Assembly (NCBI RefSeq): GCF_947242115.1
Contig: NC_074722.1
Location: 29,796,340 to 29,860,339, forward strand
Reading direction: 5' to 3'
Source: Biomphalaria glabrata
Taxonomy: Eukaryota
Length of the DNA stretch: 64,000 bases
Below the pieces are notes generated by a model, which did not search any database, was not told where the DNA came from, and was given only the letters and a program-made list of their open reading frames with translations. The translations under genes and the position numbers were made by a program. Shown here piece by piece: positions 38,111 to 42,111 of the stretch. Each line of letters opens with the position of its first letter. The first letter of the stretch is position 1.

Positions 38111-38329
38111 GAGAGAGTTCTGTTTTTAGCGGCCCCAGAAAGGGGAAAAGACGCTATTAGTTTTGTGTGGCCTGTCTGCACTGGCGGATCCAGGGGGGGG
38201 GGCGGACGAATTTTAGTATAGAATTCACACAATTTGTATACAAATTTATAACTTATGTTAAAAATATATACTAATTATTTATATTTCAACCTATTTTTTT
38301 ATTATTTCGCCCCCTCCTCTAGTATGTTG

Positions 38330-38830
38330 ACCGATTTGGTGGGGTCGGGAGGGGGCAATGGTATCAATCTCGCCCCCCCCCCATATACTTTCGAGTGGGG
38401 GGGGGCGGTCCAATTTATTTGTAGAAATCACAGCTTGCTAACAGAATCAATTAAATATCTATATGATTAAAACTTGTTATTGATATTTTAACCCATCTTT
38501 ATATTATGTCGTTCCCTGTTTACCGTTTGGGGGGGGGGCGAATACCTCTACTGCCCTTCCCACCTAAACCATTTGAGTGGGGGGGGGCGGTCCTACTTTT
38601 ATGGAGAAATCATAGTTTGTGAACAAAATTAGTTGAATTAATCTATAAATTTTATATTATGTCGCTCCCTTTCTGGTATCTTGGTCGATTCGGTGGGGTT
38701 GGGGGAGGGTGATTGCATGTACTGCCCTTTCCACTCTAGCACTCTGAGTGGGGGGGGGGCGGTCCTATTTTTATGGAGAATCATAGTTTGTGAACAAAAT
38801 TAGTTGAATATCTATATAATATAAACTACG
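38330..38830. repeat. Roughly 185-bp tandem repeat, about 3.5 units, inside the TIR element. Units derive from the subterminal G-run region.
   Basis: The repeated unit reads gagtggggggggggcggtcctatttttatggagaaatcatagtttgtgaacaaaattagttgaat...ggtggggtYggg.agggg. Confidence 0.8.
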
Positions 38831-39589
38831 TATTGATATGTGAACCCATTGTATATTATGTCGTACCATACTCTAATCTCAAATTTTATCATTAGTAAAT
38901 TTAAATGAAAAAGGGTTGTACCAGGTGGGAAGGGCGATATATGCAATTGCATTTCCCCCATCGGACAAACCAATACTTTTTCTTTTAGTATTATAGTTTA
39001 GAAATTACAAAATGTAAAAAATCTGCCACTACTATAATTTATATATACTATAAATTAAATTCTTATATCGAGTCGCCCTACTTTTTTTTTTTTATTCTTT
39101 AATGCCAAATGCAATCTTTAGCAGAAATTATTAAAGGAGCGAGGATTAATCGTTTTCATTCTACCGCCCCTCCCATTTCCAGAGTTTATGTAATTTCACA
39201 TGAATTTATCATAATTATTTTAAGAAAGACTTTGCATTGGAAAAGTTAGAATTCAAACGAAATTTTTCAGTATAAGAGTCATGATTGAGATGAGTTCTAA
39301 ACTCAAATAATATTTACATAGTCGCCTTTTCCCAACCTTTACTCAATCTGATATTTTTCTAGCTAATTAAATTTGGGACTATAACTCACAATTTATACTA
39401 GAGTTTTCTTGAATACTATTTATCGAATAAGTTTTTTTTCGGCGGCGATCCTCAAAGCCAAAATCTAAATATGTGGGGTATCTTATTTTTTCAAGGAACA
39501 AATCGGTTTTATTTGCAATGTATTAAGGGCCTATAAATTCATATTAGAATATCTTTCAAGGTCCTTTTTTTTTAATAGTATGAATAATG

Positions 39590-40440
39590 AGGTTTAGGTC
39601 AGGAGAATGCGTTTCTGCAGTGAAGAATGCAAGAAAACGCTTTTGTCCTTTCGGGCTTCGCACCTAACTCCATTGATGAATAATGAGCTGTAGATGTCAA
39701 GAAAATGCGTTTCTGCAGTGAAAAATGCAAGAAAACGCTTTTAGCGTCGGGGCTTCGCCTTGAACTTCATTGATGAATAATAAGCTGTAGATGTCAGGAG
39801 AATGCGTTTCTGTAGTGAAGAATGCAAGAAAACGCTTTTAGCGTCGGGGCTTCGCCTTGAACTTCATTGATGAATGATGAGCTGTAGATGTCAGGAGAAT
39901 GCGTTTCTGCAGTGAAGAATACAAGAAAACGCTTTTGGCGTCGGGGCTACGCCCCGAACTCCATTAATGAATAGTAAGCTTTAGATGTCAGGAGAATGCG
40001 TTTCTGCAGTGAAGAATGCAAAAAAACGGTTTTGTCGTCGGGGTTTCGCCCCGAACTCCATTGATGAATAATAAGCTTTAGATGTCAGGAGAATGCGTTT
40101 CTGCAGTGTAGAATACAAGAAAATGCTTTTGTCGTCGGGGCTTCGCCCCGAACTTCATTGATGTATGATGAGCTATAGATGTCAGGAGAATGCGTTTCTT
40201 CAGTGAAAAATGCAAGAAAATGCTTTTGTCGTCGGGGCTTCGCCCCGAACTTTATTGATGAATGATGAGCTTTAGATGTCAGGAGAATGCGTTTCTGCAG
40301 TGAAGAATGCAAGATAACGCTTTTGTCGTCGGGGCTTCGCCCCGAATTCCATTGATGAATAATAAGCTTTTAATGTCAAGAGAATGCGTTTCTGCACTGA
40401 AGAATGCAAGAAATTGCTTTTGTCGTCGGGGCTTTGCCCC
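39590..40440. repeat. Roughly 120-bp satellite, about 7 units, inside the TIR element.
   Basis: Unit aggagaatgcgtttctgcagtgaagaatgcaagaaaacgcttttgtcgtcggggcttcgccccgaactccattgatgaataataagctttagatgtc, with internal dyad symmetries (gcgtttct/agaaaacgc and ggggcttcgcccc). Confidence 0.9.
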
Positions 40441-40514
40441 AAACCCCACTAGGGAACCTTATCGCGTTGCCCCACTTTTTCGCCGAAGGTTGAGAAATGC
40501 TGCTTTTTAAAATT

Positions 40515-40705
40515 CTCATATATATATATATATATATATATATATATATATATATATATATATATATATATATATATATATATATGTGTGTGTGTGTGTG
40601 TGTGTGTGTGTGTGTGTGTGTGTGTGTGTGTGTGTGTGTGTGTGTGTGTGTGTGTGTGTGTGTGTGTGTGTGTGTGTGTGTGTGTGTGTGTGTGTGTGTG
40701 TATGT
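40515..40705. repeat. Compound microsatellite (TA)~35 then (TG)~60.
   Basis: Direct reading. The ORF-track ORFs in this region (IYIYIY.., HTHTHT.., CVCVCV..) are translation artefacts. Confidence 0.95.
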
Positions 40706-40727
40706 GTGTTCTGTACACACGTTTATG

Positions 40728-40777
40728 CATAGGGTTAGGGTTTACTGGGCGTTAGGGTTAGGGTTTGAAAAAAAATC
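40728..40777. repeat. Short interstitial telomere-like block, 4 TTAGGG units in two pairs, next to the right TIR.
   Basis: Reads catagggttagggtttactgggcgttagggttagggtttg. Confidence 0.7.
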
Positions 40778-42111
40778 GCCCCCCCCCCCACTCCAAAGTT
40801 CTGGATCCGCCAGTGCCTGTCTGTCCGTCGTCCATCCGACCCGTTTAGATCTCGTAAACTAGAAAAGATAGTGAAAATCCGACATAATATACTTTATGCC
40901 ATTCAAAGATCTGATGCAACGGCTACTATTTTCTATTTTGAAAGCGAAAAATCTAATTTTTTAAATCACTTATGCAAGCAATTTTTTCATAAAAATACAC
41001 CACTTTTACAACTATTCATTATTAATAGTAACAAACACTTGAGGCTTATTTTTAACACATTTAAATAGACAGTTGTAGATTTTTTGTCAATTGTTTTTAC
41101 TTCTAGGCTTATTGTTAAGTTATGTAAGTTCTGTTATACTAAGTACTATATTTATACACACACAAAAAATATTATTTTTTAAAGAGAAAAAATCTATTTA
41201 GTATGGGTACAAGTCAGACATAATATAAAACAACAATTAATAAGTATTTTTTCATAATATAGCGTGAACTGTATTGGGTGACATTCAGGATAGTATAAAA
41301 CACCTAACCAAAGAAAAAACAATTTTTTTATTTTTTTTTTACGGAAATGTTTTATTCATGAGGAATACGAGATTGGCCCTTAACAAAACAATTAGACCAA
41401 TTAGATATTCATTATAATACATCAGTTAGGCCAAGTTCACATCTAACTTCACATTCACTTTCAGCTATCCTTTGGTCTGCTGGACCGCTGAGGCACCACA
41501 CGAGATCTGTTAATCTTTTTTTCTCCATTATTTTCTGTCATTTGTCTTTGAAAGAATTTCATTCTGATAAAATTGAAACCTGCCTTTTTACCTGCCTGGG
41601 TGGACCATTCCAGGGTCGATTTTCAGTTTGTGTTTCCACACAAACTGTCTTTGTAACCTTATTTTTCTTTTCATAAACAAATTTCTCTGGCAACACGGTG
41701 GTATTTTGGTCATCGGATATTGTTCTGAAAATACTAGGACGTAGGCTATTACTAATCCCCACTATTCCAACCAACTTGATAGCTACCAAAAAGATACGTA
41801 CAAGACCAATTTGTATCAGCATGTAAATCCATGACCATCGTCTCGGCAGTCAATGGCTCTACCACCGTAACCTTATACCTGCTTCATGGTAAGTATTTCA
41901 AACTTACCTCCGTACTTGATAACAACAAAACTTGGATTCTGGGATGTGTTCATATGATCTCTGTTCATTGTTCAGGTTTAACAAGTAGACCCTACCGCAC
42001 ACAAGTTTGAAACCATGCAACGCCAACTAACACTTGTGTACGCCAAGTCAAGACAAAGCTAAAACCAACAAAACAAAATAATTGTTAGTCCTACCCTTGG
42101 AAAGTATTTGG

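Follow-up and report, generated by a model that had tools for sequence, protein, structure and literature searches.

The question raised by this locus is whether the repeat-rich DNA between positions 38179 and 40815 of the window (the whole stretch of 64 kb of Biomphalaria glabrata DNA that was analysed) is a single mobile element, to which superfamily such an element would belong and how it came to hold several kinds of tandem repeats. Our answer, to which we give a probability of roughly 85%, is that it is a non-autonomous (non-coding) hAT-superfamily DNA transposon of B. glabrata.

The termini were inspected first for their fit to a transposon insertion. The features found are compiled in Table 1. 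The 8-mer CCTGTCTG occurs just twice in the 64 kb, both times directly beside a terminal inverted repeat (TIR). Both copies are preceded by a ninth matching base, a G, which on the right-hand side is supplied by the TIR as its final base; despite this base, the length of the target-site duplication (TSD) was fixed at 8 bp because of the comparison with the family. Further perfect copies of CACTGGCGGATCCAG were not found in the window, where 0.36 chance matches are expected at ≤3 mismatches. The paralogous empty site has 73% column identity to the flanks and contains a single copy of the target-equivalent sequence TCCGTCCG. With perfect 15-bp TIRs, a perfect 8-bp TSD and this empty paralogue, the proposal of the earlier note that one mobile TIR unit had been inserted whole is upheld. 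It might be objected that the repeats arose by chance or as an assembly artefact with no mobile element behind them and, indeed, assembly errors are common where repeats are dense or microsatellites long, and the unit counts are provisional, but we regard the objection as extremely improbable: chance cannot account for a perfect 8-bp direct repeat beside a perfect 15-bp inverted repeat, the host repeat also occurs without the insert in a paralogous copy and the terminus is common to at least 120 metagenome contigs.

Table 1 Features of the element, its empty site and its hAT relatives in the window.
Feature	Position	Strand	Description
Paralogous "empty site"	16100-16260	-	diverged host-repeat copy matching the left and right flanks through the junction; lacks the 2.6-kb insert
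Left TSD CCTGTCTG	38171-38178		8 bp, abuts the left TIR
Inserted unit	38179-40815		2,637 bp
Left TIR CACTGGCGGATCCAG	38179-38193	+	perfect 15-bp inverted repeat
Subterminal repeat array	38194-38870	+	3.6 diverged units of 172-203 bp each (repeat families D2, D4, D5)
AT-rich non-coding spacer	38871-39579		unique, ~710 bp, without internal or window-wide similarity
97-bp satellite	39580-40448	+	9.0 monomers, 89% matches (repeat family D1)
Short unique spacer	40449-40517		between satellite and microsatellites
(AT)34 microsatellite	40518-40585		100% pure
(TG)62.5 microsatellite	40585-40709		98% pure
Two TAGGGTTAGGGTTT doublets	40730-40766	+	telomere-like, 2+2 units, 23 bp apart from start to start (repeat family D8)
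Right subterminal region	40776-40800	-	inward from the TIR: AACTTTGGAGT-G11-CGA
Right TIR (reverse complement of CACTGGCGGATCCAG)	40801-40815	-	perfect 15 bp
Right TSD CCTGTCTG	40816-40823		8 bp, abuts the right TIR
201-bp hAT MITE	42112-42312	+	TIR CAGTGGCGTAGCCAGG, TSD GTATTTGG
3.5-kb hAT element	47963-51461	-	TIR CAGTGGCGTAGCTA, TSD CACCAAAG

Relatives outside the window were recognised by the exact 19-mer CACTGGCGGATCCAGGGGG, comprising the TIR and the following Gs, which heads these at least 120 contigs. The C of CACTGG is the exact point where the similarity starts; the 107 usable ends fell into 43 sequence clusters. In 30 paired metagenome ends, the 8-bp flanks matched at 8/8 positions in 8 cases and at 7/8 in 7 cases; with the next 8 bp outward as control, the best match was 6/8, seen in 2 cases. 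Unlike the relatives with the exact terminus, which are mostly MITEs of 150-500 bp with 8-bp duplications, the element described here is 2.6 kb long because of its internal arrays and is the longest copy seen. The earlier note had made its reading depend on other copies with these TIRs and, broadly, such copies exist, in the form of at least 120 elements elsewhere with the exact terminus. Long ORFs in 120 TIR-bearing metagenome loci were considered as transposase candidates and rejected; those tested coded for ankyrin-repeat, RIO-kinase and aldo-keto-reductase proteins. TIR matches in two viral contigs (L127 and L128) were judged to be chance, as the flanks are common to both and the match in L128 lies in DNA that, read by eye, is apparently protein-coding. 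A literature search on the TIR strings gave only unrelated papers.

Two neighbours in the window have CAGTGGCGTAGC-type TIRs and perfect 8-bp TSDs. The larger one contains the frameshifted C-terminal half of a transposase (~49150-48146, minus strand) with a Dimer_Tnp_hAT remnant (PF05699, E=6e-12, 45.6 bits versus a cut-off of 21.4). At E≤1e-10, the remnant matched 298 homologues, whose architecture is DUF4371 plus hAT dimerisation; proteins of this lineage are annotated as "ZMYM1-like" or "P52rIPK-like". The TIR of the 2.6-kb element is identical at 12 of 15 positions to that of the 42112 element (CAGTGGCGTAGCCAG) and at 11 of 15 to that of the 47963 element. Kinship with the CAGTGGCGTAGC hAT family of the same window had been suggested before from 11/15 TIR positions; the kinship is supported and the figure is correct for the 47963 element, but has to be raised to 12/15 for the 42112 element. 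The minus-strand ORF at 51812-53245, elsewhere in the window, matches B. glabrata LOC106051547 with 100% identity.

Four transposase-bearing relatives, three of them metagenome contigs (L122, L125, L130) and one from the bivalve Sinanodonta woodiana (L123), have CAGTG(G/T)CGTAGC TIRs and perfect 8-bp TSDs. Their ends are asymmetric in the same way as those of the element: the left TIR is followed by a G-rich/CGGTCC sequence and the right TIR by ACTTT(T)G...GGGGCG(A/G)T. The G-run/CGGTCC motif together with the left/right asymmetry is also common to the window element at 47963-51461 and L121. All nine transposase-bearing elements, that is, eight fetched loci and the window element at 47963-51461, end CAGTGGCGTAGC-type, with CAGTG(G/T)CGTA(G/C/A)C, and the CACTGGCGGATCC terminus was on none of the nine in this small sample. 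Both types of end were found together in sample Ga0049107, the source of two CACTGG-type MITEs (L021, L052) and of one CAGTGG-type transposase-bearing element (L129). Because of the CAGTGGCGTAGC elements of the window, the four transposase-bearing relatives and the at least 120 contigs sharing its terminus, we assign the element to the hAT superfamily.

TIRs of hAT elements are short, about 10-25 bp, and usually open with 5'-YARNG. The TIR of the element opens with CACTG, in which A2 and G5 are conserved and position 3 is a C instead of a purine; its window sisters open with CAGTG. The known hAT target consensus sequences are nTnnnnAn for the Ac group and nnnTAnnn for the Buster group. Neither of them fits the TSDs CCTGTCTG, GTATTTGG, CACCAAAG, TTTGCTTG, AATGCTCT, AGTCGAAA and TCTAAGTA or eight perfect metagenome TSDs, the target sequence being a weak, lineage-specific criterion. 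The length of the duplication, 8 bp in the element and likewise in its relatives, and the terminal and subterminal similarity to transposase-encoding elements are as expected of hAT elements. Another superfamily with 8-bp duplications (P, Zisupton, Novosib), whose ends had become hAT-like by convergence, could be argued for from the opening CACTG instead of CAGNG/TAGNG, from the TSDs that match no known hAT target consensus and from the nine transposase-bearing elements, none of which has exactly these ends. Nevertheless, we consider it very unlikely, given the 12/15 TIR identity to window hAT elements, the subterminal motif and asymmetry in common with transposase-bearing hAT elements and the co-occurrence of both types of end in one sample.

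The element has no coding capacity, as had been proposed: the longest ORF outside the microsatellites comprises 75 amino acids and none of six element ORFs had a Pfam match. The left array begins directly after the TIR, with units starting at 38194, 38397, 38579 and 38751 (spacing 203, 182 and 172 bp), the last of which is partial. The units are 68-74% identical to one another and each opens with G9CGG(T/A)C(C), preceded by (A/C)(C/T)TT..GAGT. Thus, an array of ~185 bp in 3.5 units, as described in the earlier note, was recovered as ~3.6 units of ~180 bp, and its derivation from the G-run subterminal region is supported. The motif G9CG(G/A) occurs seven times near the element ends, in both orientations, and the right subterminal motif is the one seen at the junctions of the left array and at the right ends of the transposase-bearing relatives. 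The ORFs of the AT-rich spacer had no Pfam match, and Rfam gave only sub-threshold noise there.

The satellite, previously described as seven units of ~120 bp, was measured to consist of 9.0 units of 97 bp, of which monomers 2-8 are ~90% identical. Each monomer contains two hairpins, GCGTTTCTGCA...TGCAAGAAAACGC and CGGGGC-TTC-GCCCCG, and the DNA fold amounts to -17.4 kcal/mol (z = -2.98). An origin of the satellite from a ribozyme, tRNA or SINE was rejected, Rfam and ARAGORN being negative; a self-cleaving ribozyme model was not matched in the satellite in an Rfam E-value scan of 37500-41500, which elsewhere gave only sub-threshold noise. A 23-nt likeness of flank plus TIR to the satellite hairpin (repeat family D3) was put down to chance, since part of it lies in the target-site flank and thus outside the element. 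The microsatellites, reported before as (TA)35(TG)60, were confirmed, as (AT)34 followed by (TG)62. Instead of one block of four TTAGGG units, two separate (TTAGGG)2 doublets were found at 40730-40743 and 40753-40766, with 9 nt between them and the last ending 35 bp inside the right TIR. A telomeric motif in a mobile element had been called unusual, but such doublets are ordinary (unrelated contigs of animal type contain 9 in 430 kb) and were dropped as a significant feature after this frequency check. In an interstitial telomeric sequence, several TTAGGG units follow one another without interruption, which is not what is seen here; the doublets are taken to be incidental.

This anatomy bears on how the unit was put together. 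The interior is heterogeneous and family-like sequence covers only ~700 bp on the left and ~40 bp on the right, as would be expected of a composite or macro-transposon, in which two MITEs had framed host DNA already holding the satellite and the microsatellites and the outer ends were then used together. Such an origin appears highly improbable, since inner TIR copies were found nowhere in the element interior, the left array runs on from the left TIR and the right subterminal motif is single-copy and lies directly inside the right TIR. A more serious alternative, which we nevertheless hold to be less likely than insertion of the complete unit, keeps the hAT shell but has a much shorter MITE land first, followed by in-place expansion of the satellite and the microsatellites, perhaps also of the additional subterminal units. 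The small size of most same-terminus relatives points in this direction, as do the purity of the microsatellites (98-100%), which suggests recent or ongoing slippage, and the failure to find the satellite again: a second copy of the element interior or the satellite was not found within the window, the translated 97-bp array found no other copy in a database of 5.8 billion proteins and the satellite core had no exact match in viral and prokaryote genome collections. Against it, divergence amounts to ~10% between monomers and to 26-32% between subterminal units, yet the TIRs and the TSD are perfect, suggesting that the arrays predate the insertion, an argument that is weak because just 46 bp of TIR and TSD are compared. 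If expansion in place were true, the element would be uninformative on transposon-mediated satellite spread. In 2017, Adema et al. reported that intact transposases were lacking from the B. glabrata assembly and judged its DNA transposons not to be recent (PMC5440852). The perfect TIRs and TSD fit awkwardly with this picture, with the qualification that 46 bp have little dating power.

For the insertion of a complete hAT unit, the following sequence of events is proposed. Cut-and-paste transposition brought the element, as a single unit of 2,637 bp, into another dispersed repeat, adjoining a decayed LINE reverse-transcriptase fragment, and repair of a staggered 8-bp cut produced the CCTGTCTG duplication. 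The transposase would be supplied in trans and would recognise the 15-bp TIR plus the G-run/CGGTCC subterminal motifs; it most likely comes from the hAT lineage that combines DUF4371, a FAM200/ZBED5-type RNase-H-like fold and a hAT dimerisation domain. Presumably the interior is a passenger, enlarged by slippage during replication or by unequal exchange: the left subterminal segment may have been multiplied to 3.6 units of ~180 bp, the hairpin-bearing 97-bp unit amplified to 9 copies and the compound (AT)34(TG)62 microsatellite expanded beside the satellite. The array growth may have preceded the insertion, and the extra subterminal copies may serve in transposase binding.

How does the element compare to known systems? 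With hAT MITEs and the DUF4371/FAM200-ZBED5/hAT-dimerisation lineage it has in common the 8-bp TSD, a short CA(G/C)TGGCG(T/G)A TIR, the G-rich/CGGTCC motif and asymmetric ends, and it co-occurs in the window with a hAT element retaining a transposase remnant; unlike in that lineage, its ends are of the CACTGGCGGATCCAG variant, found on none of the nine transposase-bearing copies examined. Ac/Ds, Hermes and other hAT elements have multiple copies of short subterminal motifs, which are bound by the transposase besides the TIR. By analogy, the short motif repeated near the ends of the element in both orientations is a putative binding site, but unlike the hexamer-scale motifs of Ac/Ds and Hermes, a whole subterminal segment of ~180 bp is tandemly multiplied here.

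MITEs bearing tandem repeats are an established class (PMC3879986, PMC12628747, PMC9659126). Closest in design are the pearl/DTC84/DINE-1 elements with their modular plan of a flank, few to ~10 core repeats, a microsatellite at the array end and a second flank (PMC3879986), and the same plan is seen here, with a 97-bp x 9 array, 69 bp and (AT)34(TG)62 between TIR-bearing flanks. Core repeats with palindromes or hairpins and a mollusc host are further likenesses. On the other hand, pearl/DTC84/DINE-1 elements have a putative AA dinucleotide target, cores of ~160 bp and tetranucleotide microsatellites and are suggested to be Helitron-like, whereas the element, with TIRs of the hAT type, a TSD of 8 bp, a core of 97 bp and microsatellites made of dinucleotides, is analogous to them but does not belong to their group. 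A DNA-transposon shell with an internal tandem array is also known from Xstir and miDNA4 of Xenopus and Tetris of Drosophila virilis, although the superfamily differs, miDNA4 being Tc1/mariner and Tetris a foldback element. Their internal repeats also exist as satellites, with free arrays demonstrated, and a route from transposon to satellite with stem-loop-assisted expansion has been proposed (PMC12628747, PMC4079207). Classical satellite DNA is made up of long, homogeneous arrays, found at many loci or in heterochromatin; the array described here has 9 monomers.

In sum, the element is real but ordinary, of a kind for which good descriptions exist from molluscs, insects and frogs, and the locus alone leaves the knowledge of such elements unchanged. 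A far-reaching view would make the CACTGGCGGATCCAGG hAT lineage a cross-phylum, possibly horizontally spreading MITE-generating family, whose snail members carry the hairpin satellite of 97 bp, together with the multiplied 180-bp putative transposase-binding end, to new places in the Biomphalaria genome and seed them there, with this locus as an intermediate between transposon and satellite; we find this doubtful. What the locus does offer is a clean, fully bounded hAT-type shell with three classes of tandem repeats, in a snail vector of schistosomiasis. DNA transposons account for about 8% and unclassified repeats for 17.6% of the B. glabrata assembly (PMC5440852), and the TIR and TSD rules (CA[G/C]TGGCG..., 8 bp) could aid the annotation of unclassified snail repeats. 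Should the 97-bp array be present in further copies too, the family would be a tractable gastropod case of transposon-to-satellite conversion.

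The 2,637-bp element is bounded by perfect terminal inverted repeats (TIRs), CACTGGCGGATCCAG and its reverse complement, of which no further perfect copy was found in the 64-kb window. The 8-mer CCTGTCTG occurs twice in the window, each time abutting the outer edge of one TIR, and perfect TIRs within a perfect 8-bp target site duplication (TSD) are exactly what the earlier note had described. A ninth identical base, the G left of CCTGTCTG, finds its right counterpart in the terminal G of the TIR, but the duplication is 8 and not 9 bp because comparison across the family of elements sharing this terminus fixes it at 8. 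A single 8-mer was then placed between the two flanks, and the joined sequence was compared to the remaining window. A diverged paralogue aligned to both flanks and ran through the junction without a break (TTAGTTTTGTGTGG(C/T)C(T/C)GTC(T/C)G followed by TCC...C(G/A)TTTAGATC; column identity 73%), with the target-equivalent octamer in single copy and without the 2.6-kb insert. Since the paralogue crosses the junction uninterrupted, the flanks are part of an older dispersed repeat that received the unit; the suggestion of one mobile unit is borne out by this insert-free copy. The host repeat has a (GTCC)n-like core, and a 33-bp tandem duplication adjoins the paralogue. Directly upstream of the insertion site lies a decayed, frameshifted LINE reverse-transcriptase fragment with the motifs GKSAGVDNILGE and GMRQGCLLSPTLFNI.

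Features of the element, of the window and of related loci (window coordinates unless a locus is named)
Feature	Position	Strand	Details
Left TIR	38179-38193	+	CACTGGCGGATCCAG, exact match
Right TIR	40801-40815		perfect reverse complement of CACTGGCGGATCCAG, exact match
Left array	unit starts 38194, 38397, 38579, 38751		units of 203, 182, 172 bp and partial fourth
Unique AT-rich stretch	after left array		~710 bp
97-bp satellite	39580-40448		9.0 monomers, 89% matches overall
Spacer and microsatellites	after 97-bp satellite		69 bp, then (AT)34, then (TG)62.5
Two TAGGGTTAGGGTTT doublets	after microsatellites		23 bp apart
A8-TCG-C11 tract	between TAGGGTTAGGGTTT doublets and right TIR		
Host repeat, element flanks	38091-38178 and 40824-40900		
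Host repeat, paralogue	16100-16260	-	
33-bp tandem duplication	16024-16084		
LINE fragment	37000-38090	-	
hAT MITE, complete	42112-42312		201 bp; TIRs CAGTGGCGTAGCCAGG and CAGTGGTGTAGCTAGG; perfect 8-bp TSD GTATTTGG
hAT element	47963-51461		3.5 kb; TIR CAGTGGCGTAGCTA; perfect 8-bp TSD CACCAAAG
Transposase C-terminal half	~49150-48146	-	in 3.5-kb hAT element
LINE-like ORFs	50025-50843		
LOC106051547	51812-53245	-	
Solitary right end	9300-9395	-	CAGGGGCGTAACTAGG
Other tandem arrays	45417-45850; 23621-23747; 56530-57040; 11814-11900		27 bp x 16, 31 bp x 4.1, two 16-bp-unit, (AT)43
L122 element	3692-7180		TSD AATGCTCT
L123 element (bivalve Sinanodonta woodiana)	3805-7557		TSD TTTGCTTG
L125 element	5702-7666		TSD AGTCGAAA
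L130 element	724-4493		TSD TCTAAGTA
L122 small MITE	8589-8984		TIR CAGTGGCATAACGG / CAGTGGAGTAACGAGG; perfect TSD ACGCCAGA

The interior was laid out with Tandem Repeats Finder and a repeat finder. The left array, which had been read as 3.5 units of roughly 185 bp, is present, with unequal units that are 68-74% identical to one another. The second satellite, previously given as 7 units of about 120 bp, was resolved into 97-bp monomers, of which numbers 2-8 share ~90% pairwise identity and the edge monomers are more diverged; each monomer holds two hairpins (DNA fold -17.4 kcal/mol, z = -2.98). The left flank plus TIR (GCCTGTCTGCACTGGCGGATCCA, 38170-38192) resembles the first hairpin arm in every monomer (GCGTTTCTGCAGTGAAGAATGCA, e.g. 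39609-39631) over 23 nt (65-74%), which was judged to be chance because the match spans the target-site flank. The TA/TG tract was recovered, as was the lack of coding capacity: microsatellites aside, the ORFs of the element reach 75 aa at most, and a search of six ORFs gave no match in Pfam. None of the four other tandem array regions in the window is related to the element.

The contiguous block of four TTAGGG units did not stand, the units being arranged 2+2. The window has only one exact (TTAGGG)2; copies with a single mismatch lie at a distance of 23 bp and at one other place. A telomeric block was rejected since the hexamer occurs at chance frequency (23 observed versus ~24 expected, both strands) and (TTAGGG)2-3 was found 9 times in 430 kb of fetched unrelated eukaryote-type contigs; the doublets represent an incidental short motif that was copied in a 23-bp tandem duplication.

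Three lines of sequence evidence, namely window elements, transposase-bearing relatives and a widespread exact terminus, converge on an assignment of the element to hAT. Two further elements of the window, which has 35% G+C and many decayed transposons, have TIRs of the CAGTGGCGTAGC type within perfect 8-bp duplications, and the longer one retains a frameshifted transposase remnant, one ORF of which matched Pfam Dimer_Tnp_hAT (E=6e-12, 45.6 bits, cut-off 21.4); the proposed link to a hAT family thus gains relatives in the same window. The shorter one contains GGGCCC-type palindromes, and the sequence adjacent to a solitary right end resembles its right half; no left partner of this end was seen and it is probably a truncated copy. 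LINE-like ORFs are apparently nested in the longer element, 351 bp from whose right end lies LOC106051547. The sole long clean ORF in the window is 100% identical to this uncharacterized B. glabrata protein, followed by relatives from Bulinus and Lymnaea; the window is therefore nuclear DNA of this snail, a vector of schistosomes.

With the stitched transposase remnant as query, 298 proteins were found at E<=1e-10, which have DUF4371, FAM200/ZBED5 RNase-H-like and hAT dimerisation domains and are named by NCBI ‘zinc finger MYM-type protein 1-like’ or ‘52 kDa repressor of the inhibitor of the protein kinase-like’. DNA was fetched around nine of them (L121-L126, L129-L131), and four of these loci proved to be complete elements with CAGTG(G/T)CGTAGC TIRs and perfect 8-bp duplications. 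L121 has both TIRs without a matching duplication, L124, L126 and L129 have the right end only, and no such end was found in the DNA fetched for L131. The two ends of the relatives are not equivalent: the left TIR runs straight into a G-rich tract that ends in CGGTCC(G), and next to the right TIR stands (A)ACTTTTG-CC-GCCCGGGGCG(G/A)T. The snail element has the same polarity, with G9-CGGAC at the left TIR and AACTTTGGAGT-G11-CGAT at the right. The motif returns at every unit junction of the left array (ACTTTCGAGT-G9-CGGTCC, CATTTGAGT-G9-CGGTCC and CACTCTGAGT-G10-CGGTCC), from which it follows that the array arose by tandem multiplication of the subterminal segment, TIR excluded, in line with the origin in the G-run region that had been proposed; seven copies of G9CG(G/A), with both orientations represented, are present in the element. 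On the TARA metagenome contig L122, a small MITE lies 1.4 kb from the transposase-bearing element.

An exact scan of metagenome contigs revealed that the 19-nt terminus CACTGGCGGATCCAGGGGG heads no fewer than 120 of them, drawn from numerous sample series. Among the matches listed, similarity starts exactly at the C of CACTGG with unrelated upstream flanks, the 107 usable ends group into 43 sequence clusters (of which seven have at least three members), and 30 TIR pairs delimit elements of 150-1621 bp, whose 8-bp flanks agree at 8/8 positions in eight and 7/8 in seven; the next 8 bp outward, taken as control in the same pairs, agree at 6/8 at most. These elements share only the TIR and G-run with the snail element. 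The clusters are short MITEs with 8-bp TSDs, the terminus being strictly conserved across many families. The 19-mer was also found in two IMG/VR viral contigs (L127 3584-3602, L128 3713-3731) with the same flanking sequence; a mobile element was rejected there in favour of chance, since the L128 match has no TIR partner and sits in apparent protein-coding sequence, as read from the DNA.

hAT elements such as Ac/Ds and Hermes transpose by cut and paste; their transposase binds the TIR and subterminal motifs, and the staggered 8-bp target cut is filled in. A ZMYM1-like hAT transposase acting in trans would have mobilised the snail element, an enzyme we can only infer because all nine transposase-bearing elements that were examined, 47963-51461 and eight fetched loci, lack the CACTGGCGGATCC variant. 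One metagenome sample, Ga0049107, contains CACTGG-type MITEs (L021, L052) alongside a CAGTGG-type element with a transposase (L129). The interior probably grew by slippage or unequal exchange, and hairpins like those of the monomers have been proposed to assist, as stem-loops, the expansion of repeats borne by MITEs (PMC3879986, PMC12628747). Satellite monomers diverge by ~10% and subterminal units by ~30% while TIRs and TSD are perfect, which weakly suggests that the arrays are older than the present insertion and travelled with the element; the microsatellites (98-100% pure) are probably still growing in place.

Transposon shells that enclose short tandem arrays are a known class, many of whose members have a microsatellite bordering the array on one side and palindromes in the core repeat; those described are pearl, CvA and DTC84 in bivalves, DINE-1, PERI and SGM in Drosophila, Xstir and miDNA4 in Xenopus and Tetris in D. 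virilis (PMC3879986, PMC12628747, PMC4079207, PMC9659126). The snail element works like these shells but is not a member of pearl/DINE-1, because hAT TIRs and an 8-bp duplication replace their AA target site. The published B. glabrata genome is reported to contain 8% DNA transposons, a SPIN-like hAT in ~1,000 copies and no intact transposase (PMC5440852), and the decayed transposase at 47963-51461 agrees with this report.

In sum, the element is shown to be a delimited unit without coding capacity, which has hAT-type ends and whose insertion produced an 8-bp duplication; the core of the earlier interpretation holds once the size and number of the second satellite and the contiguity of the TTAGGG units are corrected. 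The most fitting classification is a new non-autonomous hAT family member that carries an unusually heavy repeat cargo; its extra subterminal copies might, speculatively, raise the affinity for the transposase.
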